Shown here piece after piece: positions 2,595 through 37,123 of a stretch of 64,000 bases of DNA (its first letter is position 1; each line of letters opens with the position of its first letter). A program made the position numbers and the translations under genes. The stretch comes from Nemertoderma westbladi. Taxonomy: Eukaryota > Animalia > Xenacoelomorpha. The notes below the pieces were generated by a model. It was not told where the DNA came from and did not search any database. It worked only from the letters and a program-made list of their open reading frames with translations. The stretch spans positions 2,310 to 66,309 of the forward strand of contig JAUCBJ010006254.1 in NCBI GenBank assembly GCA_032718475.1, written 5' to 3'.

Positions 2595-3258
2595 AGTTTA
2601 TTTGATATATAATATTAATTAAGCGTTAAAGAGACTGTTTATCTTGACTTAATTCAGGATACTGAATTAATAATTGTATAACCTATCTCGGTTTACTGTA
2701 ATGTGTACCACATGGGTACCGGTACTGTATAGGAGATATGAGGGAATCTTGACACAATCAAAATGGAAACATTACAAAGTGAATATCGACGCTAATCATC
2801 TCTGATTACGAACTAAAATGAAACTGAAACATGTGATAGGCCTATTGTCTCTCGCTTATTGCTTTGATTAGAATAGCATTCCCAATGTAAATAAATATGT
2901 AAATTGTAGTCTTCGGCTTGTTTAACCTATACAGTATAAATTAAAGTAACCGCCCAACCCCGGGAACGGGGTTGCCATGTATGTGGATGGTGCCTGGGGC
3001 CACACTTCATTTATTTACTTTTTTTAAAATCATTTAAAAATAATATTCGAACAAAGTTAGATAAAATATGCACAAATTATTGTTTATCGGTTATTGTTCA
3101 TTGGAATTTGTTTATTATTATTGTTACAAAAAGTAAAGGCAACAAACTTCCTCCATAACACACCTCGTTTGTTGTTAAACAATGTTTCAATTTTCGATTC
3201 ACAAATAACTTACACCATGGCGAACCAATACAACACGCTATTACGTGAATTGCTACTG

Positions 3259-4525: not shown

Positions 4526-4584
4526 TATTTTTGTACAAACTTACATTTATTATGAATATACAGAAATAAAAGGCAAAGGTTACT

Positions 4585-11028: not shown

Positions 11029-11030
11029 TA

Positions 11031-12284: not shown

Positions 12285-12310
12285 ACTTGTAAATCATAAG
12301 TTACCACCTA

Positions 12311-13577: not shown

Positions 13578-13770
13578 TTTCCCATTTTCCCCATGGCATG
13601 CTGAAGGCCCGTGATTGATTTACTTTGGGTAGAAATATGTAGTGAATGTGAGAATCATCTTATATTTTTTAACAAATGATTTTTCACTTATCCGTTACCA
13701 TAGTGGTGCAAGGGCGCTGTAATTATGACATTCTGACTCAAGACAAAATCTGAAAACGACTTATGACTTA

Positions 13771-15037
13771 CGAGAAAGGAATTTCCTAAAGGAAATGCAA
13801 CCACGAAGCTAAGGAAAATTAAACAAACGGCCACACTTTGGTTCGTTGCTTAGCCTCGTTTAGTAGCATTTGTCAATAATTAACTTCTATTCCCATGGAA
13901 ACTAGTGTTCTCTGGAACTGTTGGTTTAACCTTTGAAAAAAAAATCAGTACAGATTGTGGTTCAGATAACACATATACTGAGTTTCAGAAAATATTGTAG
14001 TTTATGTCCAAATTACCGATTTTCTATCAAAATGCATCTGTTTGCAGTGGTTGTCTTGGAAACTGAAAAATAGAACAATGTAATTGGGATGCAGAATAAG
14101 TCATATAGTGGGGGTAGGGGTTAATCCCAAGTCATAATACTATTAACTTGTGCTTCAAATTATCATTTTATAAATTTTAACATCTGTTTAGACTTGTTGC
14201 TATGGTAACTGTATTTTCTAATTAACCTCAAACGGCTTGGATATGGATCTTATAGATGAGTTGCAAAACCCCAAGTTTATATATATTACAGTTTTGCTAC
14301 AAATAGAGTTATCAATATAGACTTGAATGATATAGAGTTTAATAAACTACAGTTACCATGGTAACTAAATTTCTGGAATAATTTAAGTTTCACTAAAAGT
14401 TCCAACTAGTGGTCCAGATAACACGTACCCAGTTTTGTAAAATTTCATCGTGAAGTCTATGTCCAAATGAATAATTTTTGTATAAAAACATCTGTTTTCT
14501 GCGGTTGTCATGGTAACTGAAAAATAGAACAATGTAATTCGGATGCAGAATAAGTTATATAGTGGGGGTAGGGGTTGGTCCCAAGTCATAACACCTTGCC
14601 CTTAGGCCTCAAATTAACATTTTATAAATTTTAACATCTGTTTATCCCGGTTGCCAAGGTAACTGGATTTTCTATTTAGCCTCAATCGGATCTACTATGG
14701 ACCTTATAGTTGTGTTGCGAAACCCCAAGTTTATATCTATTATAGTTTTCCTACAAATAGAGTTATAAATATTGACTTGAAATACATAGACTTTTTTTGA
14801 AGTCCGTTGCCATGGAAACCAGATTTTTCCTGGATATGAGACCCGGCCCAAAAGATGCGCCTCGCCGAGTAGTATATACATGCAAAATTTCAGGGTACTT
14901 TTAAAGGCTTGTTTTTTCCGGAATCAAAAAAAACCAAATCTGCTCCATACAAGTAAAATAGCCCACTATGAATAGACCATCTCAGCTAAGGAAAATCTTT
15001 CTTAGCGAAAGTAGTTGATTTTCCTTAGCTTCGTGGA
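13771..15037 (-). mobile_element. Helitron/Helentron-like copy H5
   Basis: Very similar to H4; 3' end CTCG. Confidence 0.8.
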
Positions 15038-15134
15038 CCAGTGGAGCACGGGCCTAATGCATTTCATAAAATATCTTAAGAATGACAAAAGGTTCAACAT
15101 GTAAATTAAGCCGGTTGTAAATGGTATATTAATA

Positions 15135-16402
15135 CTAGAAAGGCATTTCCTGAAGGAAATGCAACCACGAAGCTAAGGAAAATTAAACAAAGGGCCACAA
15201 TTATGGTTTGTTGCTTAGCCTAGTTTAGTAGCATTTGCCAATAAATAACTTATATTCCTATGGAAACTAGAATTCTCTGGAACTGTTGGTTTTACCTTTG
15301 AAAAAAGATTCAGTCCAGATTGTGGTTCAGATAACACATACCAAGTTTCAGAAAATATTGTAGTTTATGTCCAAATTACCGATTTTCTATCAAAATGCAT
15401 CTGTTTGCAGTGGTTGTCATGGAAACTGAAAAATAGAACAATGTAATTCGGATGCAGAATAAGTCATATAATGGGGGTAGGTCTTGGTCCCAAGTCATAA
15501 TACTATTAACTTGTGCTTCAAATAATCATTTTATAAATTTTAACATTTGTTTAGTCTTGTTGCTATGGTAACTGGATTTTCTAATTAACCTCGAACGGCT
15601 TGGATATGGACCTTATATATTAGTTGCAAAACCCCAAGTTTATATATATTACAGTTTTGCTACAAATAGTGTATTGAATTTAGACTTGAATGATATAGAC
15701 TTTAATAAACTCCAGTTACCATGGTAACAAGATATTTCTGGAATGATTTGAGTTTCACTAAAAGTTCCAACTAGTGGTCCAGATAACACATACCCAGTTT
15801 TGTAAAATTTTATCGCGAATTCTATGTCCAAATGAATAATTTTTGTATAAAAACATCTGTTTTCTGCGGTTGTCATGGTAACTGAAAAATATAACAATGT
15901 AATTCGGATGCAGAATAAGTTATATAGTGGGGGTAGGGGTTGGTCCCAAGTCATAACAACTTGCCCTTAGGCTTCAAATTATCATTTTGTAAATTTTAAC
16001 ATCTGTTTAGCCCGGTTGCCAAGGTAACTGGATTTTCTATTTAGCCTCAATCGGATCTGCTATTGACCTTATAGTTGTGTTGCGAAACCCCAAGTTTATA
16101 TCTATTATAGTTTTCCTACAAATAGAGTTATAAATATTGACTTGAAATACATATACTTTTTTTGAAGTCCGTTGCCATGGAAACCAGATTTTTCCTGGAT
16201 ATGAGACCCGGCCCAAAAGATGCGCCTCGTCGAGTAGTATATACATGGAAAATTTCAGGGTACTTTTAAAGGCTAGTTTTTTCACCGGTCAAAAAAAACC
16301 AAATCTGCCTCATACAAGTAAAATAGCCCACTATGAATAGACCATCTCAGCTAAGGAAAATCTTTCTTAGCGAAAGTAGTTGATTTTCCTTAGCTTCGTG
16401 GA
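15135..16402 (-). mobile_element. Helitron/Helentron-like copy H6
   Basis: Same termini and internal organisation as the other copies. Confidence 0.8.
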
Positions 16403-16518
16403 CTATAGTAGGTGATGTAACAGAATCGCGTCAGCAGATGATAGTGGCAATGGTGGAATTGGTCTATTGATGAATCCAACTGCACATGCAGCATTGGACA
16501 AAATAGACCAAATCTCTA

Positions 16519-17789
16519 CTAGAAAGGCATTTCCTAAAGGAAATGCAACCACGAAGCTAAGGAAAATTAAACAAACGGCCACAATTTGGTTCGTTGCTTA
16601 GCCTAGTTTAGTAGCATTTGCCAATAAATAACTTCTATTCCCATGGAAACTAGAGTTCTCTGGAACTGTTGGTTTTACCTTTGAAAAAAGATTCAGTCCA
16701 GATTGTTTTTCAGATAACACATCGAGTTTCAGAAAATATTGTAGTTTATGTCCAAATTACAGATTTTCTATCAAAATGCATCTGTTTGCAGTGGTTGTCA
16801 TGGAAACTGAAAAATACAACAATGTAATTCGGATGCAGAATAAGTCATTTAGTGGGGGTAGGTGTTGGTCCCAAGTCATAATACTATTAAATTGTGCTTC
16901 AAATTATCATTTTATTAATTTTAACATCTGTTTACTCTTGTTGCTATGGTAAATGGATTTTCTAATTAACTTCGAACGGCTTGTATATGGATGGACCTTA
17001 TAGATGAGTTGCAAAACCCCAAGTTTATATATATTACAGTTTTTCTCCAAATAGAGTTATGATTATAGACTTGAATGATATATAACTTTAAAAAAACTAC
17101 AGTTACCATGGTAACTAGATATTTCTGGAATGTTTTGAGTTTCACTAAAAGTTCCAACTAGTGGTCCAGATAACACATACCTAGTTTCGTAAAATTTTAT
17201 CGTGAAGTCTATGTACAAATGAATAATTTTCGTATAAAAACATCTGTTTTCAGCGGTTGTCAAGGTAACTGCAAAATAGAACAATCAAATTCGGACGCAG
17301 AATAAGTTATATAGTGGGGGTAGGGATTGGTCCCAAGTCATCACACCTTAACCTTAGGCTTCAAATTAACATTTTAAAAATTTTAACATCTGTTTAGCCC
17401 GGTTGCCAAGGTAACTGGATTTTCTATTTAACCTCAATCGGCTCTGCTATGGACCTTATAGTTGTGTTGAGAAACCCCAAGTTTATATGTATTATAGTTT
17501 TCCTACAAATAGAGTTACAAATATTGACTTGAAATACATAGACTTTTTTCTAAGTCCGTTGCCATGGAAACCAGATTTTTCCTGGAGATGAGACCCATCC
17601 CACACGACGCGCCTTGATGAGTTGTATATACATGCAAAATTTCAGGGTACTTTTAAAGGCTAGTTTTTTCCCCGACCAAAAAACACTAAATCTGCCTCAC
17701 ACAAGTAAAATAGCCCACTATGAATAGACCATCTCAGCTAAGGAAAATCTTTCTTAGCGAAAGTAGTTGATTTTCCTTAGCTTCGTGGA
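16519..17789 (-). mobile_element. Helitron/Helentron-like copy H7, inserted in the LINE endonuclease region
   Basis: Removing it restores atc tct a|ac cgc (I-S-N-R) in frame with no duplicated bases. Confidence 0.85.
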
Positions 17790-20470
17790 ACCGCATCATC
17801 CGTTGCCACTTCTCATGTTCTGGAAGACTGGCTAAGAAGTTTCCTAAGGTGGTTCTGATTGTGTGCTACTCTCCAACTAGTGTTGCCCCTGTAGAGGAGG
17901 TGGAAAATTTCTACCACAATCTACAAGCAGCTACTGATGGAGTGGATCAGCATGCATTCTTAACATTCCTGGGAGACTTTAATGCAAGTCTGCATCAATC
18001 ACCGACATCACCCTGGGTCTATAGCAATAGTGTTAACCGAAATTCTGTCCATCTTCAGGATTTTATCTCTGGAAATGGATTGTTTTCGGCTGGAACCCAG
18101 TTCAAGAAGCGAACTGGAAAGCTATGGACTCATAGTGGACCCAGTGGTCACAAGTCCCAGATAGACCATATTCTGTTTCGTAGGAAATACAGGAGCTCTA
18201 TACAAGACTGTAATGCATTTACACTTCGACCCTTCTCCAGTGATCACCGCCTTATTGTGGCCAAGGTAAGACTTAGTCTGCGTGCTAGCAGAACAACGAA
18301 ATCTGCCTTGCCACGGCATGACTGGTCCTCTCTGTTGCAACAGCCAAGTGTGAGATCCAGCTTCACACTACAGCTGAGCAACAGGTATGAGGCTCTTGCC
18401 TCTGAGGCGGCAGATCACTGTGAGGGCTATACTGCCTTTACAGAAGCAGTTAAGTTAGCAGCTGCAGAAACAGTTCCTGTATACCCTCGAAACAGGAAAA
18501 GGGCCCCCTGGACTGACAACAAAATTCAGAAGTGCCGAAATGACCTTCATAAGGCGCAGAAAGAGTCCCGACTCAAACAGACTACAGCGGCCAAGAATGC
18601 AGTTAAAGCTGCATCTAGGTCCCTGAACAGGCAGTACTCTGTTAATCTACAGGAGCTAATAAACCAACAGGTTGATGCCATCAATGATGCTGACGACAGC
18701 AGGCAATCATCCCAGGCATGGAAATCGATCAATCTGCTTACTGGGCGGAAAAGCCAACCAACCACCAAGGTTAAGGCTGAATCACCAGCAATAGCATGCA
18801 TGGATCGCCGCAATGGTTGGAAAGCCCACTTTGAAAAGCTCCTCAATAATGACAGGGTATTGCCTGATAACTTTATAGAAGTAAAAGTGTCTGAGTCTGT
18901 ACTCCCAGATATTCCCATTGGCGATATCTCCTTTGCAGAAGTGAATGCTGCTGCAAAGAGCATTAAGACCAATCGTGCCAGTGGAGTAGATGGTGTTCCC
19001 CCTGAGGTCTTTAAAATACCTGAGTGTTTAAAGCTCATCTATCCCTTCATAGTAGACATGTACCGTACAACAAGAGTCCCACAAGAAATGAAAACAAATA
19101 AGTTGGTGCCAGTTCCCAAGAAAGGCAACCTAACACTCTATGGTTCTTTTCGGGGAATCTCATTGATCTCGATTGCTGCAAAACTATACAATAGAATTCT
19201 ATTAAATCGCATCAGGGATCCCATTGAGAGACTGCTACGTGGAAATCAGAATGGGTTCCGTAAAGGTCGTGGGACCATGGAGCCCATTTTGGCACTTAGA
19301 AGGATAATTGAAGAGTTATCAAAAAAGAAAGACAGGCATCTGGCTGTTATCTTTGTTGACTTCTTCAAGGCCTTTGATTCAGTCTCTCGCTCACGTATGT
19401 TCAGCATACTTTCATTATATGGGATTCCTGATGAAATTATTGCAGCAATCAGATCAGTATACGATGGTTCAACAACATTTGTGTCTACTGTTGACGGTGA
19501 CACAGAACCATTTGAAGTGTTATGGGGCGTCCTCCAAGGAGACACACTTGCACCATTCTTGTTCATTATTGTGGTTGACTATGTTCTACGCATGTCCTTA
19601 GATCATCATAATGATGATGGGGTGATGATAACTCCACCTACTGGCTCCAGAAGTCGAGGAAATCCTGCCAAGTACCTAACTGATCTAGACTTTGCTGATG
19701 ACTTAGGAGTACTCTCAGAATCATTAGAGGGAGCCCAGCGGCTCCTCAGCTCATTAGAACATGCTGCTTCTAGTGTTGGTCTTTTTATTAACTCCAGAAA
19801 GACCAAAATTCTGACTGTTAACTTTGAAAGTCCTCAGCAAGTCTCTGATCGGATGAGCATAAGCTCAAAGGATGGTATGCTTGAGCATGTGGACGACTTC
19901 TGTTACCTGGGATCATGGATCCGGAAGTCAGGTGAGGACCTTCGAATACGTAAGGGAAAGGCATGGGCAGCCTTGAATAGGCTTTCCAGGATTTGGAAGT
20001 CACCTAGAATTAATCGGAAACTTAAGGTCCGATTATTTAGAGCAGCAGTAGTTCCAGTACTCCTCTACGGGAGTCCATGCTGGGCTCTAACTGCTGAGGA
20101 CACCAAATCTCTGGATGGCACATTCACAAGAATGCTACGCCGGGTACATTGTGTCAAGTACAATGCACACATCTCCAACCAGACACTATATAACATTGGA
20201 GGTGTCTCATTGGTTCCCCCAAGCTTGACACTAGAACAAAATCGGCTCCGCTTTGCAGGACATTGCTTTCGCCGTGAGGACCAGCCAGTGCATAATCTTG
20301 TACTTTGGCAGCCTCATGGAGTGAATAAGCATGGTGGACAACCCATGACTTTCTTGAGACGCATCTTAAAGGACACTGGCCTTGAAGATGCGGATGATCT
20401 AGCAAATGTCATGGGTGATAGGGAGTTGTGGCGGTGCGATTTTGTCGATAAGCCGGCACAGCATTCTTAA
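17790..20470 (+). CDS. RTE LINE ORF (endonuclease C-terminal half + reverse transcriptase); 5' part disrupted and truncated
   Basis: APE motifs GDFNA, SQIDHIL and SDHR. RT motifs QNGFRKGR, FVDFFKAFDSV, GVLQGDTLAPFLF, FADD and YLGS. RTE-like C-terminal RLRFAGH. Confidence 0.9.
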
Positions 20471-21637: not shown

Positions 21638-22214
21638 ATTTCTGGTTCTGCAAAACACCTTCCATGTATAAATTTATATCCCATAGATGGATACCTAGTT
21701 TAGGGCAGGAGAGGGAAATTCAAATTATATATTAGGCCTGTTTATTGTACTTCGATAACTGTTGACTACAATTTTGCTTGCTAATGATCAGACCAGAACA
21801 AGATCGCCATTTCTCTCATTTTAAGTCGTATTCTTATTATAATTGGTCCCCGCCTTAAATGGAATAAATTAACAACAGTAAAAAAAACACTAGTATTCGG
21901 ACGTAGCGACCTAGCTGCCTACCGGTACCGCCACAACATTAGTTGAAGGACTGGAGACTGGATCAGTGAACTACCGTGCGTCGTCATAGCAGTGAAATAA
22001 GTATAACTGTTATATGTAAAACTAATCAGTTATATTTATCTAAGCCAAACTACTGTTTTACTGGTACTTGTACTTGCAGTCTGTACCTGGTACACTACAG
22101 TGTGATATTTTATCTAAGTATCTATTTCTTTGAGTCTCTGACTGACAATTCCTCTGCATTACATTATATACCGTACATTGCCATAAACTTATTGTGGAGG
22201 TAAATCAAATATTA

Positions 22215-23252
22215 ATGGAATACGCCACAGACTCCGAGGGTTCGGTTCCAACAGATGATGATTCAATGGAAGGGGATTGTAACTGCAACATTTGCGATTA
22301 TTATGGTAGATCCTCCGAAGACTACGACACTTCCCGCGAGCTCCATTGGGCTGCTGCGGATGGTTATATAGAAAAGTGTCGCGATCTTTTATTGGAAGGA
22401 CGCGATCCGAATAGTAAGGTTGACGTGGGTTTCGGGAAGTTAACACCGCTGCATAACTTTCTTAAACGTATCTTCAATTATAGTGATTCTGAAGAAATTT
22501 ACAAAGGGGTGAAGATGTTCCTTGAACTTGGATCTAGTTCTAGTTCACATATTCTTATAACTGCAGTCGAATGCATAAATCTCGACAGTTTCGAACTGAT
22601 TTTAAAGAATAGCAGTCTCGGTCATATTAACGGCACTGTCCGCGTACATAAACACACACCACTTTCTTGGGCTGTAGAACTCGGTTGCGCAAAACACGTT
22701 GAAATGATCTTAAAATATGGGGCGGAACCGACTAGTAAGCCTTTCGCGTTCGAAACTATCCTTAGCGGGGAATGTTCCGGAACACTGCCTCTTCCGGTGA
22801 TGAAACGGTTGTACCGCCGGAGCATTGCCGAACGCCTAAAAAGCCCCAGTCGTTACCAATACCAAATAGGCGATAAATGGGATGAGCTCGTACTTTACAT
22901 CCAGACAGGTTACACCATCTCTACGCCTCCAATGTTTCTGGATGGGACGGGACCTTACACAGGGATTTTACGAAGTGTAATCCCTTATAAATACTTAAAG
23001 GAACTCATTTACGACCTATGTCCTTCAAGACATAATTACATATGTGAGAACTTTCGCATTCATGAGGAGGTGATTGGTGAGGATTTGGAGTTGCAATTTT
23101 TAAGTCTGCAGCATATGAGTCGAAGGGTGATCCGGGAATGTTTGTTTCGTAGCGGGAAGGAATTTGAAGAAATCAATAAGGCGTTACTTCCACCTGTTCT
23201 ACCTTTAGTATTGCGGAGATACGTGCTTGGCATGTGGGATGATAACTATTAA
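22215..23252 (+). CDS. Ankyrin-repeat and SOCS-box protein (ASB-like E3 substrate adaptor), single exon
   Basis: Ankyrin motifs LHWAAADGYIEKCRDLLLEGRDPN, TPLH and TPLSWAVELGCAKHVEMILKYGAEP. C-terminal SOCS box SLQHMSRRVIRECL...LPLVLRRYVL. First ATG at 22215. Confidence 0.8.
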   Translation: MEYATDSEGSVPTDDDSMEGDCNCNICDYYGRSSEDYDTSRELHWAAADGYIEKCRDLLLEGRDPNSKVDVGFGKLTPLHNFLKRIFNYSDSEEIYKGVKMFLELGSSSSSHILITAVECINLDSFELILKNSSLGHINGTVRVHKHTPLSWAVELGCAKHVEMILKYGAEPTSKPFAFETILSGECSGTLPLPVMKRLYRRSIAERLKSPSRYQYQIGDKWDELVLYIQTGYTISTPPMFLDGTGPYTGILRSVIPYKYLKELIYDLCPSRHNYICENFRIHEEVIGEDLELQFLSLQHMSRRVIRECLFRSGKEFEEINKALLPPVLPLVLRRYVLGMWDDNY

Positions 23253-23803: not shown

Positions 23804-24697
23804 TAATTTATCTCCCTTTCTACCCGATCAGCTGCGTTTAATTTATCTCCCTTTCTATAATTTATCTCCCTTTCTACCCGATCAGCTGCGTTTAATTTAT
23901 CTCCCTTTCTACCCGATCAGCTGCGTTTAATTTATCTCCCTTTCTATAATTTATCTCCCTTTCTACCCGATCAGCTGCGTTTAATTTATCTCCCTTTCTA
24001 CTCGATCAGCTGCGTTTAATTTATCTCCCTTTCTATAATTTATCTCCCTTTCTACCCGATCAGCTGCGTTTAATTTATCTCCCTTTCTACCCGATCAGCT
24101 GCGTTTAATTTATCTCCCTTTCTACCCGATCAGCTGCGTTTAATTTATCTCCCTTTCTATCCGATCAGCTGCGTTTAATTTATCTCCCTTTCTATAATTT
24201 ATCTCCCTTTCTACCCGATCAGCTGCGTTTAATTTATCTCCCTTTCTATAATTTATCTCCCTTTCTACCCGATCAGCTGCGTTTAATTTATCTCCCTTTC
24301 TACCCGATCAGCTGCGTTTAATTTATCTCCCTTTCTACCCGATCAGCTGGGTTTAATTTATCTCCCTTTCTACCCGATCGGCTGCGTTTAATTTATCTCC
24401 CTTTCTATAATTTATCTCCCTTTCTACCCGATCAGCTGCGTTTAATTTATCTCCCTTTCTACCCGATCAGCTGCGTTTAATTTATCTCCCTTTCTATCCG
24501 ATCAGCTGCGTTTAATTTATCTCCCTTTCTATAATTTATCTCCCTTTCTATCCGATCAGCTGCGTTTAATTTATCTCCCTTTCTACCCGATCAGCTGCGT
24601 TTAATTTATCTCCCTTTCTACCCGATCAGCTGCGTTTAATTTATCTCCCTTTCTATAATTTATCTCCCTTTCTATCCGATCAGCTGCGTTTAATTTA
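23804..24697. repeat. 35-bp satellite, left arm
   Basis: Unit aatttatctccctttctacccgatcagctgcgttt, interspersed with the 19-bp short unit aatttatctccctttctat. Confidence 0.97.
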
Positions 24698-25899
24698 TGT
24701 AAAAGCTTTTGTGGGATAACTGATACGTTTGCCTTTGCTGGCCAGTTCCCCCCCAGTCGCTAGAATACTCTCAAAGGGATTTATAACTAAAATAGTGCAA
24801 GCTACCAGCTTATTGGCTGATGTGCTGTACGGAGATATCTGGGCTCAGTTTAATCGGCCAACTAGCTTAGAGAGGTTGCCTTAGCCTTGCTGTCCGTATC
24901 GGCCAATAGAATTTGAGTGGGCGTTGATTTCGACCTATCCCAGAGCCAGAGCTACTGAACTGAATTTCCTATCTCACTGCTCATCCTCTGTGTTGGACGG
25001 GAGCTTCGGGGAATAAGGGTAGTTGGTATACTCGTATAGTCATTCCAGTCATATGATTTTATATGATTCTGTTGTTGTGTTCCCATTTTCGCCATAACAC
25101 CGGCTTTTTGGGAAGAACTCTAGTAAAACTGCTTAAATTATCGAAAGTATAAACTGTTACCTACTCACTTACTTAACTAACTCACTTAATTTAACTGCAT
25201 TAATCATATTGTTTGTACTGTTATTTTACTGTCAGTTATTAATTGTATCTATTTGTTGATGGAAATATTGCTCTTTGGAGAATACGGATAAATCACCCAA
25301 AATTCCCAATTTTCTTGATACACTACAGGTTAGAGAGACGGGCTATATATAACAATTGCGATTTATATTAATGTGGTGTGTATTGAATCTAATGTTATTT
25401 AGCGGACCCTACATGAGTCAATTGCTGCTCTCTTTATGTGTGATCAAATATACTGACGGTCGGCAGAATAGTGTGCATGATTGTGATTGGTAACAAAGTA
25501 TTTCCTAAAGAATGCGCTTTATACTTTAATCATAAGCAGTATCGTTGCGTTTAGTATAAGTCCTAGTTCTGTTTAAATAGATAGAGCGCCACGTCCTAAA
25601 GGAACTGTTAATATTCCCCGAAAGCCAATAATATCTGTCAGGAATTAATTATTAATGATCTGTCGAATAATACAGTAAGTTTACGCTGCAACCTTACACT
25701 GCAATAATAAAATTTAAGCATCCGAATTCAGCCTCCCGGGTGTAGATCCATCGGGTGAATGATCGCGCATGGGCTGACTTCGGCTAATGTTTTGCGTATT
25801 AGCATAAAATATTGTCGTATGCTAAAGGTGTTTTAATTAACTAAAAGACATATAAATTTTGGCAGGTTAAACTGCTAAAGGTCTTCAAAAGCGCGAACA
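24698..25899 (+). repeat. 5' LTR (1202 bp)
   Basis: tgtaaaagcttttgtggg...aaaagcgcgaaca. By eye it differs from the 3' LTR by a 6-bp duplication (cagagc) and one substitution. AATAAA at 25706. Confidence 0.95.
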
Positions 25900-25912
25900 G
25901 TAACAGTTTATA
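25900..25912 (+). promoter_or_regulatory. Candidate self-priming primer-binding site
   Basis: gtaacagtttata directly after the LTR is the exact reverse complement of tataaactgttac at 25148-25160. No TGG tRNA-type PBS is present. Confidence 0.55.
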
Positions 25913-26204
25913 ATCTTATTGCAGTAGGCAATAAGGTTGCAAAATACCGTAGTGACTGGTAAAACTGAACCGGTACTTCTGTAGGTCAGTAGGCCTAACT
26001 GTCATCACCGGTACCGGTACTGCTGTACAAGTACATTTAGTATTATTCGATTTTGATTATTGTATACCGGTAGGCTGTTTAAGAGATTAGGGACTGTACA
26101 CCCCTTGTTTCTTTTGGAGCTTACTTATTTCTGTCGGTTTTATTTCCTAGTAAGTTAATATTGAGCTGAAGACGTGTAAGTCTGCTCAGATTGTGCAAGT
26201 AATT

Positions 26205-26770
26205 GTAGGCTGAACTGCTGTCTGACTGTGTTGAGTTTGGAGAGATTACGGCGTGTGTAGAGTTTGTCTGATAAAGTGCCGTTAGTAAGTTGGGGCAGCC
26301 ATATGCGGTAAGGTCAATCCCCTCTTAAAGAATAAGTCGTACTACCGTGTTAGAACGCATACTAACTAACAGTTTCAGAGTCTGCATATACTGTAGTTTA
26401 TTTAGGCTTGATCATAGTCTGCCAGTGTTTTAGTCTGTGTTTGTTTGTGTGGTCTGTTCAGGTACCGTAATAGTTATTACTCAAATATTTTGTAGGCTGG
26501 ATTGTTGTCTAGCTATTCTTAGGCCTGAAGGGATTGCTGCGTGTGTAGAGTTGGTCTGATAAAGTGCCGTTAGTAAGTTGGGGCAGCCATATGCGGTAAG
26601 GTCAATCCCCTCTTAAAGAGTAAGTCGTACTACCGTGTTAGAACGCATACTAACTAACAGTTTCAGAATCTGCACATACTGTAGTTTGTTTAGGCTTGAT
26701 AGTAGTCTGCCAGCGTTTAGTTTGTATTTTGTTTGAGTATTCTGTACGGGTAGCGTAATATTTATTATTC
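26205..26770 (+). repeat. Two-copy ~288-bp direct repeat in the 5' leader of the LTR element
   Basis: gcgtgtgtagagtt.gtctgataaagtgccgttagtaagttggggcagccatatgcgg... starts at 26251 and again at 26539. Confidence 0.9.
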
Positions 26771-28095
26771 AGAGTTTATGCGATTATTCGCAACATTCAT
26801 GTCCCCAAGTTTATTCCTACAGTAATTGTGCTTGTTATACATACCGTTATAGTTAAATTAACCCCGGTACTACATCAGGGCTGCTCGGCGTAGGTAAAGA
26901 CTGGAGATTTTGTGCTTCGGTCACTCCAGCAGATGCCGTGGTTCTTTTAACTGTTCAAGTATATTTAACTACTGATTATTTGTTATACCGGTACTTGTAC
27001 CTAATTTAGGGTTTAGTGTACAGTGCTTTCCGAAGTAATTAGTGTAGGCAGTATATTTGTGTTGTAAAGTGGTTGATAGGCACATTCGTTAGCTCTATTA
27101 GCTTCTGGGTAGGCAGGTAGGAACAATCCGTGATACATAACGTAGTACCTATAGCGATACGGTTATAGGTCGTCAGGCGGTGGTATTTTCCTATCTGGAC
27201 AGTACAATATATTTACTACTACTTATTATTTCAAATACCGTAGTACCCTGTCCGTTGTAATAACCAGAATTCTAACCCTTTGTTAGGCTGGTTTGTAGAC
27301 TTCCTGTAAAATTACCCTAAAAATTTCGTACGTAATATTTTGTTGTGTTTAATTAGAGAATTAATCTCACCCGTATCGTAAGTAATTTGTAGTAATTAAG
27401 TAACTTAGGTAAATTAGAATTATCAGTTTTAGTGTCAAATAAATAGCACTTCACTGAGAGGCGTTCAGCTTCTGTGTAGTGACTCCCCCAGAAATAATAA
27501 CATTTATTTCAAATATTGACAAAAACCCATATAAACGGGTATATAAATATTATAAATCAAATCAAACGATTTATAAATAGTAGGCCTGTCATACAACAAC
27601 TAGGTCTCACTACCAGTTGGACTACTGCTTAAATAACGGTAATAAAGTAAGTTAAAGTAACCAAGTAACCTTAAAATATTCAGAAATTCAATTATTCTAA
27701 AAAATAATTGACATACCGGTACTTACAATAGGCTTTTTATATTTATTTCTATAAATTTGAGCTGAAATCATACCGGTACTCTGTAATTAATTCTAGTCCA
27801 GAATTATACTTATATACTATAAGTGTAAGCTGCATACCGGTATTCACGATAGGCCTATTATATATTTATATATATTTGTGCTAAAATTATATACCGGTAC
27901 TCTGTGACAAATCTAGTCTGTAATAATACTTATATATATATTATAAGCATACCGGTATTCTAATATATTGTATATATATCACGTTACACTGAGTAACGGT
28001 GTCGGTAATAAATCGCTAGGCTTGCGGTCATACTGAATTACTAGACTTGCTTTAACTGAAACTATAGTAGTAGACATTCAACTGTATAACTAAAC

Positions 28096-31000
28096 ATGTC
28101 TGACACTCAGCAAAACCTGTCAGACAGTCTGATCGATACAACTATCTGTGATTCAGATAGGAGTGTGGAGCGAATAAGAAAGGAGTTCGGCTCACCTCCT
28201 ACTGTAAAAAAGGTCATCCCTCCAGTAGTATCAGACCCTAGGCTAGTCCACCATAGGTCCATCATAGGCACTCGGGCACAGGTAAAACGGGACCAAGAGG
28301 CAGTTGTCCTCTCGCAGCAACATCTTGGTCAAGAACCTACTTCCCAGCGACCCGATAGCTCCAGCAGTTCGGATACTGTAGAGTTGACTCCCGAACATGG
28401 AGTGCAGATGGCTGATACAGTCTACTCGGACCCCCTTCTTACTCTTCCTGCTGCAGTGCTAACTACTATATTCATTGCGGTGGAGGAACATCAAGCCGAC
28501 TGGGCGAAGAATAAGCGAGCGACCCAAGATAATTACGCGGGATACGCCAGGGAAGAATTGATATCTATTGTTGAATCACAATGGAACTTTCCCGGACTCG
28601 GACTTCCGTTGGATCTGTCCGAGGCTACTTGGGAAGATATACACAGGATGGGAGTGGCTAAAGATACAATGGATCCAGCTGTTTGGAAGAGGTCGGCAGC
28701 AGGATATGTGCAGGGATTCTTCGGATCCTTGGATCGATTGGAAGAACAACTGTTTCGACAACCTCACGGACCTCAAGAGCAGGAAGAGCTGCTATATCAA
28801 ATACGCGAAAGAACCCTACGCATACGACTAATCCTCTCAGCCTTTGAGGAAACTTCCAAAAGAAGACAGGACACGTCGCTGCAGGTTGTTGTCAAAACTT
28901 GGCTACATCGGGTAGATCTCAAAGTACAGGAAACGGCCCAGTGGAAATCCCAGCTGGCTGAGAGATCAACTTATGAAGAACCAACTGATGTCACCCTTTC
29001 TCAAGCGGAAAGCGAAGAGGCCGCCGAGAAACCGCGAACTAGAGACGCTATCGACATTTATTTGTCCGACTATCAGCGATTCCTAGGAGACGAAGAGTTG
29101 AGGAGACGGCTGTCTGGACTTTCCCCTAATAGTGAAGGAACCAAGCTTGTATTGGACTCAATCGATGCCGAAATGTTAGCTGCAAACCAAGCTAAATGTG
29201 ATGAAAAACTCCGTCTCACTAGAGTCCGAGAAGAACAAATAAAGAAAAGAAGGATAGAGGAACAAAAGGCGGCGGCTATGGCAGATGCAGAAGCAGAAAA
29301 AAAAGCAGCAAAGGCGGCGGCTATGGCAGATGCAGAAGCAGAAAGAAAAGCAGCAAAGGCGGCGGCTATGGCAGAAGCAGAAGTAGAAAGAAAGGCAGCG
29401 GCGGCAGATGCAGAAGCAGAAAGAAAGGCAGCGGCGGCAGATGCAGAAGCAGAAAGAAAAGCAGCAAAGGCAGTGGCAGAAGCAGAAAGGAGAGCATCTG
29501 AGCAGACTACCCAACTGGAGTTGGAAAATCTGCAAGAGACACAAGACAGTATAAATAAACAGTTTACTGCTAATCAAATGCAGATGATGAGAAAATCTAC
29601 TCCCAAGCGCCAGGGATACACATCCTCGGAGGAAGGCGATACTACCGATCCTGAAGGCGGAGGAAATAGATCTCATCTAAGTAGGCGTAGAAAAACATAT
29701 TACCGTCGCAAATTGCCTGATTTGCCCCCAGCTGTTAAAAGACAGCTAAATAGCACAGACTTAGGTAGTGCAGAACCCATAGAACAATTTATCCAGGTCA
29801 AAAGACTCCCTACTATAGTCGATGAACCTGAAATAATTAGGCCTGTTGTTCCCAAAGTCACTTCTGTGCTAGAGACCCCTACACTTCCAGAGCTTAACTC
29901 TAAATTCCCTTTACATAGTACTACCCTGCCTGTACCCGGTGGAACAGTCCCTGCAAATACCCCTGTCCAGATAGCAGAGAGAGAAATCAATAATTTGTCT
30001 CCCGTCGTCCCGCGTCAGCCCGCTACTATGTTGGCGACTCCCGCTTCGGCGGTTGAGTGGGTGGAAGAGGGACGGCGGGGGATGAATCTCCTGCTGGGAC
30101 AGATGCAGGAGACTGTCCACCAACTTAAGGGAACAGTGAGGGAAGGTAGAGCAGAGTTGCAAGAGGTGCAGCAAAGTATCGCACTAGAACGCGACAAATT
30201 AGTCAATATCCAAAAGGGCATACCAATACCCCCTGTAACATTGTGTCAACCTGTTAGGTCTGAAGTATTACATGCGCAAGGTGTGGAGCCTACACGCATC
30301 TATACTGCTAGTGAAGTTGAAACTCCTATAGCAAACCCTATTAAGGGTGATTATAGGCCTGTTATTAATGATATTCCCTATAGAACTGATAATGATCCGA
30401 GAAATTTATATACCGATAATTCGATATTAAATAACACGATGGCCCAAGAAAGCTTTACGCGTCAGATGGCTAGAACAGAAGCCCGCCAAGCGGTCAAAGT
30501 GGGAGAGATCGTCAAATTCAATGGAGATGAGATGAAATGGTTACCTTTCAACGAATATTACAAAGATAGCATACAGAACTCTGTACTATCTAACGGAGAG
30601 AAACTTAGATTCCTCATCAAGTGCTTGGAAGGACCTCCCAAGTTAATGGCGTTAAAGTTTATTGGACATCCAGATGGATTAAGACAAGTTTGGGATACAT
30701 TAAACATCAGGTATGGTAACAAGGATAACATAGCTAAGTATTTGTATGCAAAATTAGTAGCCCCCCGACACTTCCTTAGTAGCGGGATTATAGAGTTTTC
30801 CGATGAGATTCAAGAGATCTGTAGACAACTGGACTGGTTAGGTAAGTTGCATGAATATCAGAGTTCCATGGTCATTGGAGCCGTAGTCTCTACTTTACCA
30901 AAAGGTGGAGTATGTACGCGCTGGGACAAGAAAGTGTTGTACATGAATGAACAACAACGACGAAGTCCTACCATGGCTGATCTCATGTCCTTCTTAGATA

Positions 31001-32778
31001 GTGAAGTAAAATTACAACTCATAAGGCAGTCCAGAGAGAAAACATCGGAAAATAAGGTAAGTGAGAAACCCGTTTCTAGGAGAAGGATAATACCAGTGTG
31101 TTATACTGACGACGGCGAAAGCCAAGCTTCTCAAGAAGAGGACAGCGGGAAAGACACAGCAAAATCTTACTATGACAACAAGACCTATAAAGACGTAAGA
31201 AAATACAAGTCTCGAACCAGTGACAGGAGAGAACAGGTAACAACAACTCCTCCTACGTCTCCTAAGAGAATTCACGGAAGAAAGCCCGAAGAAAGAACGA
31301 GAGTGCATAACGTTAACCAAGTTAAGGTGAGTAACATCAAACCAAAATGTGCGCTGTGCGACGGGCCCCACCGTTTGAGTGCGTGTGCTGAATTTCTAAA
31401 GAAATCCCCTGTAGACAGACGTACAGTCCTGTGGAATAAGCGGTTATGCTATAATTGCCTCAGATCAGGACACCAACGGCGAACCTGTTACTCCGACGTA
31501 AAGTGTGCAAAGTGTGGCGCGAAACATCACATCTTGTTACACAGTGAGTTCGAACGAGACAACCCGAGTCAGGTAAGTGAGCCCGAACTACATGTCCAAT
31601 TCAGTGATGTGAACGACACTGACCAAGGTTCTGAGTGGGAAGGATTCTATACAGACGAATTCTCCGATGCCAACGAATCCTGTTATCTAATAAATACCAC
31701 AGTGTATCGAGCACTTACGTATGAAAAGGACACTGACGAGTTTACTCCAACTCCTTTTGACAAACAACCATCTTGGAAAGTTCCAACTTCCAACATAGGA
31801 ATAAGAGAATTTCCTGTAGTGCAAGTGAGAGTTCATGGTCTCAACAAGAGTTACATAGTGAACGCCCTACTTGACTCCGGCAGCACAGGAACATTCATCG
31901 ATCAAGAACTAGCCGAAGATATCTTTGCTGGACAACCCAAGTTCCGGACTAAATTGAATATGTCAGGAATTATGCAGGTTTGGAAATCTACCCTAACGGC
32001 AGATTACTATGTAGGTGTGTTGTCCACCCCCCAGGATAAGTTAGGAACACAAGGTATAAGGTCAGTAAAAATGGTGGCTATAAAGAACTTTGCTACTACT
32101 CAAGCAGAACCTTATAATTGGGACGAGGACGAGTGCATCCAACATCTTGAGATACCTCGATTCCAAACCGATTATCCTGGAGTGCAAATCCTCATCGGCC
32201 AAAACGCGCATGAGGCGCTCGAGACATTGGAGAAACGGCCTGCTCAACCGCAGCCATTACAAACTTATGCGGTAAGAACTAGAGTAGGTTGGTACTTTAC
32301 TGGCCCTTCCCGCAGAACTCTTGAAGAAAGATTGCCACAAGACCGGCTACTTCAAGTAAAGGATTGGGAAGAGGGGAGCAGTGAAGTGGACGAACCCACT
32401 GAGGTAACACCATACTCCTCAGATAATGACGATATTAACTCCAATGTAGATCAATGGAGACATCGCCCCGAGATGATTAATCTAGCCGACATCGCTTCCA
32501 GAGGAGCAACTCCTCAAGAACGGATAGATACTCCCGGCTGGTTAGGTGGACCCTACTCCCTAAGTAAAGAAGAAGATGAATGGCCTCCTCATCTTACCAC
32601 TGCGGAGATTAGACAGGCCAAGGGAGCGGAGGAAGTAACACGACAGCCTAATCGCCCAGCTGGTCGCTTAGGTTTACTGGAAAGAGACCGAAAACTGTCC
32701 GGAAACCATGGAAGGCAAGATACTCTTCCTACGACCACTTCCCTAATTCGACAAAGATCTAGGGACTCCATAACGTAA
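28096..32778 (+). CDS. BEL/Pao Gag-protease polyprotein (1560 aa) with an RNase H C-terminal remnant; no RT or integrase
   Basis: DUF1759-like capsid region KFNGDEMKWLPF...NGEKLRFLIKCLEG. Triple knuckle CALCDGPHRLSAC / CYNCLRSGHQRRTC / CAKCGAKHHILLH. Protease ALLDSGSTGTFI...ILIG...TRVGWYFTGP. Then QWRH...NLADIASRG...WLGGP...EWP. Confidence 0.9.
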   Translation: MSDTQQNLSDSLIDTTICDSDRSVERIRKEFGSPPTVKKVIPPVVSDPRLVHHRSIIGTRAQVKRDQEAVVLSQQHLGQEPTSQRPDSSSSSDTVELTPEHGVQMADTVYSDPLLTLPAAVLTTIFIAVEEHQADWAKNKRATQDNYAGYAREELISIVESQWNFPGLGLPLDLSEATWEDIHRMGVAKDTMDPAVWKRSAAGYVQGFFGSLDRLEEQLFRQPHGPQEQEELLYQIRERTLRIRLILSAFEETSKRRQDTSLQVVVKTWLHRVDLKVQETAQWKSQLAERSTYEEPTDVTLSQAESEEAAEKPRTRDAIDIYLSDYQRFLGDEELRRRLSGLSPNSEGTKLVLDSIDAEMLAANQAKCDEKLRLTRVREEQIKKRRIEEQKAAAMADAEAEKKAAKAAAMADAEAERKAAKAAAMAEAEVERKAAAADAEAERKAAAADAEAERKAAKAVAEAERRASEQTTQLELENLQETQDSINKQFTANQMQMMRKSTPKRQGYTSSEEGDTTDPEGGGNRSHLSRRRKTYYRRKLPDLPPAVKRQLNSTDLGSAEPIEQFIQVKRLPTIVDEPEIIRPVVPKVTSVLETPTLPELNSKFPLHSTTLPVPGGTVPANTPVQIAEREINNLSPVVPRQPATMLATPASAVEWVEEGRRGMNLLLGQMQETVHQLKGTVREGRAELQEVQQSIALERDKLVNIQKGIPIPPVTLCQPVRSEVLHAQGVEPTRIYTASEVETPIANPIKGDYRPVINDIPYRTDNDPRNLYTDNSILNNTMAQESFTRQMARTEARQAVKVGEIVKFNGDEMKWLPFNEYYKDSIQNSVLSNGEKLRFLIKCLEGPPKLMALKFIGHPDGLRQVWDTLNIRYGNKDNIAKYLYAKLVAPRHFLSSGIIEFSDEIQEICRQLDWLGKLHEYQSSMVIGAVVSTLPKGGVCTRWDKKVLYMNEQQRRSPTMADLMSFLDSEVKLQLIRQSREKTSENKVSEKPVSRRRIIPVCYTDDGESQASQEEDSGKDTAKSYYDNKTYKDVRKYKSRTSDRREQVTTTPPTSPKRIHGRKPEERTRVHNVNQVKVSNIKPKCALCDGPHRLSACAEFLKKSPVDRRTVLWNKRLCYNCLRSGHQRRTCYSDVKCAKCGAKHHILLHSEFERDNPSQVSEPELHVQFSDVNDTDQGSEWEGFYTDEFSDANESCYLINTTVYRALTYEKDTDEFTPTPFDKQPSWKVPTSNIGIREFPVVQVRVHGLNKSYIVNALLDSGSTGTFIDQELAEDIFAGQPKFRTKLNMSGIMQVWKSTLTADYYVGVLSTPQDKLGTQGIRSVKMVAIKNFATTQAEPYNWDEDECIQHLEIPRFQTDYPGVQILIGQNAHEALETLEKRPAQPQPLQTYAVRTRVGWYFTGPSRRTLEERLPQDRLLQVKDWEEGSSEVDEPTEVTPYSSDNDDINSNVDQWRHRPEMINLADIASRGATPQERIDTPGWLGGPYSLSKEEDEWPPHLTTAEIRQAKGAEEVTRQPNRPAGRLGLLERDRKLSGNHGRQDTLPTTTSLIRQRSRDSIT

Positions 32779-33321
32779 TTATATATGGAGTGGGTGTATG
32801 TCTATATTATTTTATCTATTTTTATTACATTTTATATGTGAACTTTATTATGTACTTTATTATAATCGTTTTTATTCAATTTTTATTTAGTAGAATGCTA
32901 TTTTAGAATGTTTAGTAGATTAGTGCAATATATTAGTGTTTATTACGTACATAATTACTTATAATATATATTTAGTGCGACGGCAAGAAGTAATTATTTT
33001 CTCTTTCCTTACTGTCCGTATTATATTATAAATGCGAGACTATAGTAAGATGACATGTCAGTACTTCTTAAAGTACAATAAAGCCACTACTATATTTAAG
33101 TATTATTGGTAGGCAGAGTATTAGGAATGCAAAGTTCAGATCCTCGTGTCTCGGCTAAACCAAGCTCTGGGTAGACCTTGGAAACGACTTGCCTCTTCAC
33201 ACTGACATTGCTTCGTGCGATATTGCTCTTCTACCTTATAACAAATAATACATATAGTAGCGTGATGTCCCTCTAACAGTAGCGTAAATCGCAAATAAAT
33301 CTGTTAAACTTTTGACCATCT

Positions 33322-33590
33322 GTAATTCTAGTCGATTAAGATATCGTGGCACCCACCGATATACTTGAAAGACAAATTCTAGAATCAGTGGTTAACGTCC
33401 CCAGACAAGTTCTGGAATAAATCGGTGCCCATCCTAAATATTAATTTAATATTTATTAAAATCTGTAAAATTCAGATCCGTTAACAATTCTAGTCGATTA
33501 AGATATCGTAGCACTTACCGATACTCTTAAAAGACAAATTTCATAGAATTAAGGATCCTATGTCCCCAGACCTGCTCTGGAATCAAATTG
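33322..33590 (+). repeat. Two-copy ~160-bp direct repeat in the 3' internal region of the LTR element
   Basis: aattctagtcgattaagatatcgt.gcac..accgata...aaagacaaatt...tccccagac recurs at ~33324 and ~33486. Confidence 0.75.
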
Positions 33591-34400
33591 TGTCAATTTT
33601 AACATCAAATAATAAAATTCACGGGAATAAATTTAAATTCATATTCGAATGAATTTCATAAATTGTCATTTTGTGCAATTTATAACATTCCCAAAATTCC
33701 AGTAATTAATAGATCATGGGAGCGGAGATTCATATTGAGTGTACTAGAGTGCGAGAATCTCCAATATATAGTCAATAGCCGATAAAATTTGTAAAATCAT
33801 GCATAAAGAGAATATTGACAATTAAAGAATTACTATTAAATAACATCCCAGATCTGTATGCATGAGAAGTACCCTAATTCTACCGCTAGTTTTCCATAAT
33901 GTCACCATGGCAACACCCACGCTAGAATTAGAAGCAAGTTAAAGGAACAATAAAAGGCTTGCCCCATTGCGTAGCATAAGAGTATACATAGCGCACTATT
34001 AGTATCCAAGGATACATAGTAATAACGTGACATTCTGGAAGACACTGACTAACGGACAAATGGCATGCATGTGTGCAGTAATTAATGATTGTATGGAATT
34101 TGTGCGTTTGTAGGTGAATGTTACTACTAAAGTGTGTTTACAGTAGCTAATCGCAATTGTAAAGTAGCCCTAACTCTACCGAGATAACCTCAAGTGGATT
34201 CAAGCCTTTGGGACGGACAGTGGTGGGACTTGTGCCGGTTATCGTTGTCGTGCTGTTGCTACATGTTGGCGTAAACACTGCGACAGCGGTACATCGGCGC
34301 TGAGAAACCCACTGTCCGGGGGCAAAAGCCTAGTAGGCAGCGACGCCCGCTTGCCTAAAATATTAACTTATATTGATATTAATAAACTCAGATAACAGAT

Positions 34401-35849
34401 ATGACGGAATTGATAGAAGATGACCTTGGTATCAGGGAGCGATATACTCTACCTTTACAAGCGTTTGTGGATAGCTTGATACGCGGTGAAGCCGATCCGA
34501 CTATTACGGAGGACGATGGTCGTTATATCGAACCGCCGAGGTCCCAGGAACAACTTACGCGTGAATTGGACTATAGAAAATTCACCGCTCGCTATACGCA
34601 TCGTAATGGTACGTATATGGACTTCTTAACTACCGGCCATCCTATCGATTTACATGATACGGACGATGTAGACACCGAAAGGGAAATGGTTCTATTTAAA
34701 TATCATACCCAGCGGCGTCGTAACGATAAACCGAGAATAGATCACGAAAATTCTATTCGTAACAGACTGGGAAGACGAACCAATATGTCTGGAATCTGAG
34801 GAGATTCAGCCTATCGCGCTCGGAACAGCGACAACGATTACATCCTAGAATGGTACCAAGGTCCACAGTGTCTCACTGCGTACGATTATCGCCATGCCAA
34901 CTATGTTTCTCGGCAACGTTGTCGGTTATGCGCATCGAGAGACCATGTTACGCCCATGGACACAAACGTCCGCTGTTCCTATTTCCACGAACAACCGGCG
35001 ATGGAAATTTATTGCGCGTATTGCAGATTTAATAATTTGCACATTTTTGCGGTTTGCCCTCAATTTACGACTCAATGTCACCATTGTCAACTAAAGGGAC
35101 ATGCCAGTTTCGATTGTCCTTTTAATCACGATTTGGAAAGCGTAGATGAAATGATCACACTACGTTACATCAGAGCTTGGGAAGCGAACACTGATTTACA
35201 TTGTGATTCACGCCATCGCTATTATCCTGGACGCGCTTACGAAGGAGTTTATGCGTTCCATCCTTATTTGTTTGCCTCCGTCGAGCAGAAATCGCGCCTA
35301 TCAAGTTATGAACTATTGAAGCGCGTTGGAGAATGTATTTCAACCAAATATGTACGCAAATTTCTCAGGAGCATTAATCCGAGTGACATCAATTCGTACA
35401 ACTTAATAAACTTTATCCGTCAAGATCCGGCCTATGGAGACTTATTTGTCAACTCACACCCCGAGTTACAAGAAGTATATCGACGGCCTTACGAGTACAG
35501 AGCCCGCGAACGCGAGTTGGAAAGAACCATTAAACCAAGGAAGTTTCTAACTGCCTATGGTTCACCCACGGCCCTCGTTCAGACCACTCGTAAAGGACAC
35601 GTAAGAGCGGCTGTCTTGAAACGAGCTCTCAAAGCCGTTAGACCCCTCTCCCCGGACGTTGATGTCAATCAACCCGGTACTTCGACCGGCGGATATACCG
35701 ATCGCAATCCCATACCTTCTGATGCAATCATATTGCACCCTTCACCCAGGAGTTATAGCCCTCCTCGTAAAGCGGCTCGCCCCAAAGAGAAAAGGACTCT
35801 TGCTAGCTTTAAAAAACTGCGTAAACGCCGTCCGCGCAAGAAAGACTAA
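34401..35849 (+). CDS. Accessory ORF2 of the LTR element: CCHC zinc-knuckle protein with basic C-terminus; one in-frame TGA at 34797-34799
   Basis: ORFs 34401-34799 and 34956-35849 are in the same frame, and 34800-34955 is stop-free. Motifs CRLCASRDH, CAYCRFNNLHIFAVC and CHHCQLKGHASFDC. Tail KKLRKRRPRKKD. Confidence 0.7.
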
Positions 35850-35927
35850 CTGTTTAGAGTATTTTTATATTTTAGAAACTGTGATTTTGTATATTTTATA
35901 GACTTAAATCCCATTTTCTGGGAGCGG

Positions 35928-37123
35928 TGTAAAAGCTTTTGTGGGATAACTGATACGTTTGCCTTTGCTGGCCAGTTCCCCCCCAGTCGCTAGAATACTC
36001 TCAAAGGGATTTATAACTAAAATAGTGCAAGCTACCAGCTTATTGGCTGATGTGCTGTACGGAGATATCTGGGCTCAGTTTAATCGGCCAACTAGCTTAG
36101 AGAGGTTGCCTTAGCCTTGCTGTCCGTATCGGCCAATAGAATTTGAGTGGGCGTTGATTTCGACCTATCCCAGAGCTACTGAACTGAATTTCCTATCTCA
36201 CTGCTCATCCTCTGTGTTGGACGGGAGCTTCGGGGAATAAGGGTAGTTGGTATACTCGTATAGTCATTCCAGTCATATGATTTTATATGATTCTGTTGTT
36301 GTGTTCCCATTTTCGCCATAACACCGGCTTTTTGGGAAGAACTCTAGTAAAACTGCTTAAATTATCGAAAGTATAAACTGTTACCTACTCACTTACTTAA
36401 CTAACTCACTTAATTTAACTGCATTAATCATATTGTTTGTACTGTTATTTTACTGTCAGTTATTAATTGTATCTATTTGTTGATGGAAATATTGCTCTTT
36501 GGAGAATACGGATAAATCACCCAAAATTCCCAATTTTCTTGATACACTACAGGTTAGAGAGACGGGCTATATATAACAATTGCGATTTATATTAATGTGG
36601 TGTGTATTGAATCTAATGTTATTTAGCAGACCCTACATGAGTCAATTGCTGCTCTCTTTATGTGTGATCAAATATACTGACGGTCGGCAGAATAGTGTGC
36701 ATGATTGTGATTGGTAACAAAGTATTTCCTAAAGAATGCGCTTTATACTTTAATCATAAGCAGTATCGTTGCGTTTAGTATAAGTCCTAGTTCTGTTTAA
36801 ATAGATAGAGCGCCACGTCCTAAAGGAACTGTTAATATTCCCCGAAAGCCAATAATATCTGTCAGGAATTAATTATTAATGATCTGTCGAATAATACAGT
36901 AAGTTTACGCTGCAACCTTACACTGCAATAATAAAATTTAAGCATCCGAATTCAGCCTCCCGGGTGTAGATCCATCGGGTGAATGATCGCGCATGGGCTG
37001 ACTTCGGCTAATGTTTTGCGTATTAGCATAAAATATTGTCGTATGCTAAAGGTGTTTTAATTAACTAAAAGACATATAAATTTTGGCAGGTTAAACTGCT
37101 AAAGGTCTTCAAAAGCGCGAACA
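35928..37123 (+). repeat. 3' LTR (1196 bp)
   Basis: Near-identical direct repeat of 24698-25899. Confidence 0.95.

Follow-up and report, generated by a model that had tools for sequence, protein, structure and literature searches.

A candidate self-priming signature at the LTR boundary of a BEL/Pao element from Nemertoderma westbladi

The BEL/Pao-type LTR element described here probably primes minus-strand DNA synthesis with its own RNA, in the manner of Tf1, instead of with a tRNA, a reading that we draw from the sequence and to which we give a probability of about 0.8. The element lies in a 64-kb stretch of genomic DNA (hereafter the window), the bases that follow its 5' LTR are complementary to a segment of that same LTR, and BEL/Pao relatives keep such complementarity while changing its letters.

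Architecture and family identity of the element

The features on which the argument draws are the following:

24693–24697, plus strand: left target-site duplication (ATTTA), inside a 35-bp satellite
24698–25899, plus strand: 5' LTR, 1202 bp, TG...CA
25148–25160, plus strand: predicted self-primer, TATAAACTGTTAC, with AG just before it and ending in AC followed by C, as in most relatives; its first six bases are also a TATA consensus
25329–25334, plus strand: splice donor GTTAGA; contigs of two runs (X4, X6) join it to the region of the 3' ORF
25706–25711, plus strand: predicted poly(A) signal, the sole AATAAA of the LTR, which would leave an R overlap 3' of the primer
25900–25912, plus strand: predicted primer-binding site (PBS), abutting the LTR end, the exact complement of 25148–25160, without TGG
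25913–25937, plus strand: predicted 10-bp hairpin, beginning at the first base past the PBS, which would delimit the PBS and might stack against the helix formed with the primer
28090–32778, plus strand: Gag-protease ORF of 1562 codons (ATG at 28096) with DUF1759, three Cys-His boxes (31348–31542), a DSG protease (31873) and an RNase H tail
32313–32440, plus strand: internal deletion that removes RT and most of RNase H, about 520 residues by comparison with a full-length relative; the integrase is absent too
34184, plus strand: first base past the splice acceptor of the putative subgenomic junction (AG at 34182–34183, CTAAC upstream)
34401–35849, plus strand: extra 3' ORF of 482 codons, interrupted by an in-frame TGA at 34797; it encodes three Cys-His motifs and resembles zinc knuckles only by weak atlas matches
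35920–35927, plus strand: polypurine tract, abutting the 3' LTR
35928–37123, plus strand: 3' LTR, 1196 bp, TG...CA, with the second copy of the 13-mer at 36372–36384
37124–37128, plus strand: right target-site duplication (ATTTA)

This is a young copy that was inserted recently, as is evident from its near-identical LTRs, which are one substitution and one 6-bp indel apart, and from the intact 5-bp target duplication on both flanks. The element is 12.4 kb long and was inserted into the 35-bp satellite, which occupies 23804–24697 and 37124–51267 (about 400 copies on the right) with a strong strand skew. The rest of the window holds a tandem repeat family of about 463 bp (3238–4528 and 9500–17800), with an inverted copy 5–13 kb away that is up to 99% complementary over 799 nt, a LINE-type endonuclease/RT ORF (17771–20470), an ORF with ankyrin repeats and a SOCS-box (22146–23252) and, on the minus strand at 52477–54545 and 56876–59737, host genes in long uninterrupted ORFs, namely a Rab-binding and TBC RabGAP gene spread over two neighbouring ORFs and a 953-codon AP5B1-like ORF.

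The first-pass annotation of this DNA called the element BEL/Pao-type, and the LTR pair, the DUF1759 domain, the Cys-His boxes, the DSG protease and the homologues all bear this out. TG...CA LTRs, a short target duplication and a polypurine tract accompany a DUF1759/triple Cys-His Gag and a DSG protease, the last two being named as BEL/Pao hallmarks in the accessible part of PMC554778. All 20 homologues found are BEL/Pao-type polyproteins and none is Ty3/gypsy-type, with DUF1759 in 20 of 20 and PF05380 in 19 of 20.

In the pol part, only the RNase H tail aligns with BEL/Pao relatives. Residues 488–651 of a full-length relative align with the ORF up to 32313 and residues 1171–1219 from 32440, and it is this alignment gap that shows RT, most of RNase H and integrase to be missing from the copy, a loss that the first-pass annotation did not mention. 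The junction of the deletion is bridged by a contig from another study (X4; 94 letters, to the contig end at 32405), so the RT-less form is not private to the window's copy and would be a family that needs RT in trans. The downstream part of the 3' ORF has no Pfam family, and its leads in the atlas, to Air2/ZCCHC7-like zinc knuckles, are weak, all scoring under 0.9; one may speculate that its product is a nucleic-acid chaperone.

The ICTV description of Belpaoviridae (Semotivirus) gives an 18-nt PBS for host tRNA-Arg or tRNA-Gly and a size of 4.2–10 kb (PMC8742986). The window's element resembles this description in its LTRs, 5-bp target duplication, triple Cys-His Gag, DSG protease, polypurine tract and the position of its extra 3' ORF, and differs from it in exceeding the stated size and in having no RT, no integrase and no tRNA PBS, its PBS matching its own LTR. 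At least 12 relatives with a BEL/Pao RT likewise have no tRNA PBS of the ICTV type, and the missing site reads as a gap in the description of the family, not as grounds for exclusion from it.

Complementarity at the LTR boundary in the element and its relatives

The bases at 25900–25912 (GTAACAGTTTATA) are the exact reverse complement of LTR bases 25148–25160, beginning at the first post-LTR base (offset 0) and not extending to 14. The 3' C of the 13-mer pairs with that first post-LTR base, which is the orientation required for extension into U5. The first-pass annotation had reported this match, and its coordinates are right; it had also stated that no TGG-type PBS follows the 5' LTR, and the first TGG indeed comes only at 25957, 57 bases beyond the LTR. 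ARAGORN found no tRNA genes across the window, and no Rfam families were found in 24600–37200. Since the two LTRs are nearly identical and there is no TGG site, this copy was primed recently without one.

Elsewhere in the window the LTR 13-mer match recurs once, in the 3' LTR copy at 36372. The boundary match is the longest among 9,998 internal positions, none of 150 downstream pseudo-PBS windows reaches 13, and 3 of 5000 dinucleotide shuffles of the LTR do so with offsets 0–3 allowed. Published predictions of self-priming look for a complement of at least 10 nt in the element's own 5' LTR, located 0–5 nt past the LTR; here the complement is 13 nt at offset 0. In whole-leader folds, which at more than 800 nt are weak evidence either way, the inner pairs of the helix have probabilities of 0.52–1.0 for RNA starts at 25130–25148, and the helix falls to 0–0.16 for starts at or upstream of 25124. 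Folding of nine relatives showed a hairpin flush with the PBS in only a few, so that it is not a general feature.

Within the window's own family, one X4 contig carries five differences in 25164–25172 and none inside the 13-mer (among 40 of 256 rows), and one X6 contig has the 13-mer motif with one A fewer and unrelated bases after it; no compensatory change of the PBS was seen in the X4 and X6 contigs. The stretch immediately after the 13-mer (25160–25185), which is replaced in two relatives in reads, is a run of CCTAC, ACTCAC, ACTTAC, ACTAAC and ACTCAC, each of which reads as a splice-donor hexamer on the opposite strand, and similar ACTTAC runs stand near the LTR start of three relatives (L007, L012, L032). 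This run may represent antisense U1 sites or a pairing partner of the LTR donor.

The comparison with relatives started from an alignment of 16 homologues, which led to 77 metagenome loci in a scan of 12 of the 64 collection parts, many of them without an LTR end. The 19 loci with an assignable LTR end were scored at offsets 0–7, contiguously or across a GT[AG][AG]G...YAG intron, against 150 downstream pseudo-sites each. We can describe the outcome as follows:

(i) Twelve of the 19 BEL/Pao relatives have 10–14 nt of self-complementarity, and none of their 150 null windows is as good. The match is contiguous in four (L001, L007, L012, L036) and in the other eight requires joining of the LTR at a GT-AG splice junction (L008, L013, L020, L026, L030, L031, L032, L038); L026 had been a candidate tRNA-type element, a classification rejected when its splice-junction match was found. 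For L001, L026 and L031 an LTR pair sets the LTR end independently of the match, and L008 and L020 have theirs set by a unique terminal inverted repeat; in L012, L013, L030, L036 and L038 it was picked after the match had been seen, which makes the nulls flattering for these five.

(ii) Five tRNA-type elements, with T-rich TGG-type sites, reach only 4–6 nt, and 47–148 of the 150 null windows do as well.

(iii) Three more loci gave matches. L004 has 9 nt (2/150 null) under the CAG/TAG acceptor rule and 13 nt with AAG allowed, a looser rule added afterwards; L052, which is outside the 19-locus set, has 12 nt with a GTACGA donor, found by eye and likewise added afterwards; L005 has 10 nt (3/150 null), probably by chance, and is uncounted though labelled self-type in the tree.

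(iv) L028 and L060, which lie inside the self-type clade, have no credible match; L006 has only the upstream-exon half. A rescan of sixteen loci over every ACA/ATA end, many of them without an LTR end, gave no credible boundary match except in L004. Matches of 11–12 nt in L060 and L067 were set aside as not credible, being far from any LTR end, and a scan of viral_contigs found no relatives.

(v) Some 15 distinct PBS sequences are each complementary to the LTR of their own element and start 0–6 nt past its end. On average, 4.5 of the first 10 letters agree between them, too few for one tRNA to fit them all. Nearly all begin with GT, and the primers consequently end in AC, with a C often coming next, just as in the window; no relative's primer starts with TATA. 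Primers made across a splice junction can exist only in RNA, which argues against a role of the match in DNA or as a promoter.

The complementarity is thus kept with different letters in distant families and absent from tRNA-type families; this comparison across related families had been proposed as a check by the first-pass annotation, and the sequence covariation that it brought out supports the self-priming that was suggested there. Two self-type LTRs, in L001 (911) and L031 (9478), end in TATA instead of CA, and L028 and L033 have head-to-tail tandem BEL/Pao copies on their contigs, either real arrays or assembly duplicates.

The self-type elements also hold together in an RT tree, which was made by a quick method from 49 rows with L064 left out. 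The self-type label was given to 14 rows, including L005, and 13 of them make up a single clade with an SH-aLRT of 98 and no tRNA-type row, L030 falling outside, and the tree requires 2 changes of state against 7.4 when labels are shuffled (0/500 shuffles). The sister pairs L007/L032 and L036/L038 each show both a contiguous and a spliced state. The window's element, having no RT, could not enter this tree, and a Gag-PR FastTree sets it on a long branch outside the self-type clade, an unreliable placement; the nine best-scoring rows for its Gag-PR are all in the self-type RT clade, to which it likely belongs.

Transcript start, splicing and competing explanations

Contigs of X4 and X6 join 25328 to the 3' ORF region, and one X4 joint lands at the AG at 34182–34183. 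Runs X4 to X6 consist of contigs only and are labelled 'DNA?' by guess; we infer an RNA origin, with which the joint from 25328 to 34184 would represent a spliced subgenomic RNA. The use of the donor at 25329 in this joint means that transcription should begin upstream of about 25300. The first-pass annotation had placed the start near 25148; a start at exactly that base is unnecessary, since in ten relatives the primer forms only after splicing, downstream of a first exon and not at the cap. Candidate promoter motifs include CCAAT, a GC-box and Inr-like motifs at 24812–25045. A TATATAA at 25344–25352 was rejected as the sole promoter, as the donor at 25329, upstream of it, is used.

A splice-extended primer was also considered for the window's element and is unsupported: the best of 24 GT donors tried (24822) adds only 3 bp, a gain equalled by 5 of 380 arbitrary positions, and the extra PBS bases that it would need sit in the hairpin at 25913. 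No joint into 25148 was found among the joints listed (15 of 50 in one listing). Three further features of the LTR were observed. A branch-point-like CTAAC and a pyrimidine-rich acceptor ending at 25235 lie within 25177–25235, with no such joint among those listed; 140 bases (25362–25501), holding a predicted competing partner of the primer at 25490–25495, are skipped by contigs in X4, X5 and X6; and the depth of X6 contigs peaks over 25073–25447, where depth differences were left unused since these are contigs only.

One explanation beside self-priming is that the pairing is a conserved RNA structure, serving packaging, dimerisation or translation control, and that the true primer is a host RNA such as a tRNA half. 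The 13-mer contains CTGTTA, which we take to be the anticodon loop of tRNA-Asn. Priming by the element's RNA is itself a prediction, and tRNA halves are described as primers of some copia lineages in the accessible part of PMC6317226. We nevertheless regard a host primer as very unlikely, in that the bases it needs would be held in a perfect self-helix, which it would have to displace, elements with a tRNA PBS lack the pairing, and the many distinct PBSs that each match their own LTR next to its end, nearly all with a primer ending at AC, do not suit it.

It is very unlikely that the TATAAA at 25148 is simply a TATA box with the RNA starting at about 25179, in which case the 13-mer would be present only in the 3' LTR copy at 36372 and priming would have to proceed by end-to-end pairing or by a cut in a dimer partner RNA, which would still be element-derived without having the Tf1 geometry. 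A TA step 31 nt downstream of TATAAA, among YR/Inr-like bases found about 30 nt downstream, and TCACTT motifs at 25165 and 25182 would suit such a start, and the splice joint bounds the start only to upstream of about 25300. Against it, the relatives' primers do not begin with TATA, their splice-junction primers must lie in transcribed 5' sequence, other promoter-like motifs stand further upstream, and a cut in the 3' LTR would be expected to destroy the template for strand transfer.

A chance match, or the by-product of a local inversion or template switch in the window's family, could draw on the AT-richness of the region and on 11–12-nt matches to the LTR at a few other internal positions, and is largely refuted by the shuffles, the exact boundary position and the recurrence in at least 12 relatives.

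A self-priming route and its place among retrotransposons

Self-priming is established for the Tf1/sushi group; for Tcn1 and the TAR lineage of copia it is a prediction. The accessible parts of PMC7175516 and PMC4600332 describe how the first 11 bases of Tf1 RNA pair with the PBS and how RNase H cuts between bases 11 and 12, in agreement with the background that the first-pass annotation gave (the first ~11 nt as primer, RNase H cleavage). By analogy, the sequence of events in the window's element would comprise these steps:

(i) Transcription would start at or upstream of 25148.

(ii) The 13-mer would fold back onto 25900–25912, beside the hairpin at 25913–25937.

(iii) The RNA would be cut after the conserved AC, past 25160, probably by the RNase H of an RT that an autonomous relative provides in trans, as Tf1 would suggest.

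(iv) From the new 3' end, synthesis would run about 740 nt through U5-R, as far as the cut.

(v) The cDNA would then jump to the 3' LTR, for which a predicted poly(A) site near 25730 would leave ample overlap.

Unlike in Tf1, the primer need not be the capped end of the RNA, given that the spliced relatives have an upstream exon, and it may come from another molecule, for example the putative spliced subgenomic RNA, which would hold the 13-mer without the PBS.

The window's element shares with Tf1/Tf2 of Schizosaccharomyces pombe, with Tj1 and with the Tf1/sushi and Tcn1 groups of Ty3/gypsy an LTR-adjacent PBS complementary to 11–13 nt of its own LTR RNA and the lack of a tRNA site. It differs from the Tf1 group in belonging to the BEL/Pao superfamily, in a loop of about 740 nt, in a primer that ends in AC and in having no chromovirus features, and cleavage is here suggested by analogy; its relatives, unlike Tf1, have an internal primer that splicing often generates. 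In the TAR lineage of plant Ty1/copia elements (Houba, Osr-1), self-priming is predicted in the accessible part of PMC6317226 from a complement of at least 10 bp in the 5' LTR, 0–5 bp past the LTR. The sequence criterion is the same as for the window's element and both cases are predictions only, TAR elements being plant copia.

The BEL-like element Cer7 of C. elegans has reportedly been proposed to encode its own tRNA-like primer RNA, a proposal for which our literature search found nothing. On that proposal, Cer7 would be an earlier case of tRNA-independent BEL/Pao priming, through a separate element-encoded primer and not through fold-back between LTR and PBS; unlike it, the window has no tRNA-like gene by ARAGORN or Rfam.

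We found no report of self-priming in BEL/Pao in the literature searched, most subscription papers, Repbase, GyDB and supplements being outside its coverage. It is not described in the accessible parts of PMC3601003, PMC8220671, PMC554778, PMC2997562, PMC5443660 and PMC3212995, and PBS, primer-binding and tRNA terms are absent from the main text of PMC3118150 and PMC6238403, the latter of which, in its accessible part, names BEL/Pao clades (Sinbad/Sparrow/Surcouf, Suzu and others). What would be new is the signature of self-priming in BEL/Pao, a group thought to be tRNA-primed; the mechanism itself is already known. BEL/Pao is a major group of animal LTR elements whose replication is poorly understood and assumed to be tRNA-primed (PMC8742986).

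On a broader reading, over which we are evenly divided, a whole widespread animal clade of BEL/Pao would have abandoned tRNA priming and would cut its own LTR transcript after a conserved AC, mostly with a primer that the spliceosome assembles across an LTR intron. Contiguous primers would then be derivatives that arose by intron loss or a shifted acceptor, the subgenomic RNA could supply the window's primer in trans, and splicing would gate reverse transcription. As the simplest version, with a contiguous primer, the window's element would suit a first test well. If self-priming is true, the self-primed clade would be a further independent origin of the mechanism besides those in gypsy and copia, it would account for BEL/Pao elements for which PBS finders report no site, and through its splice-built primers the initiation of reverse transcription would be linked directly to host splicing.
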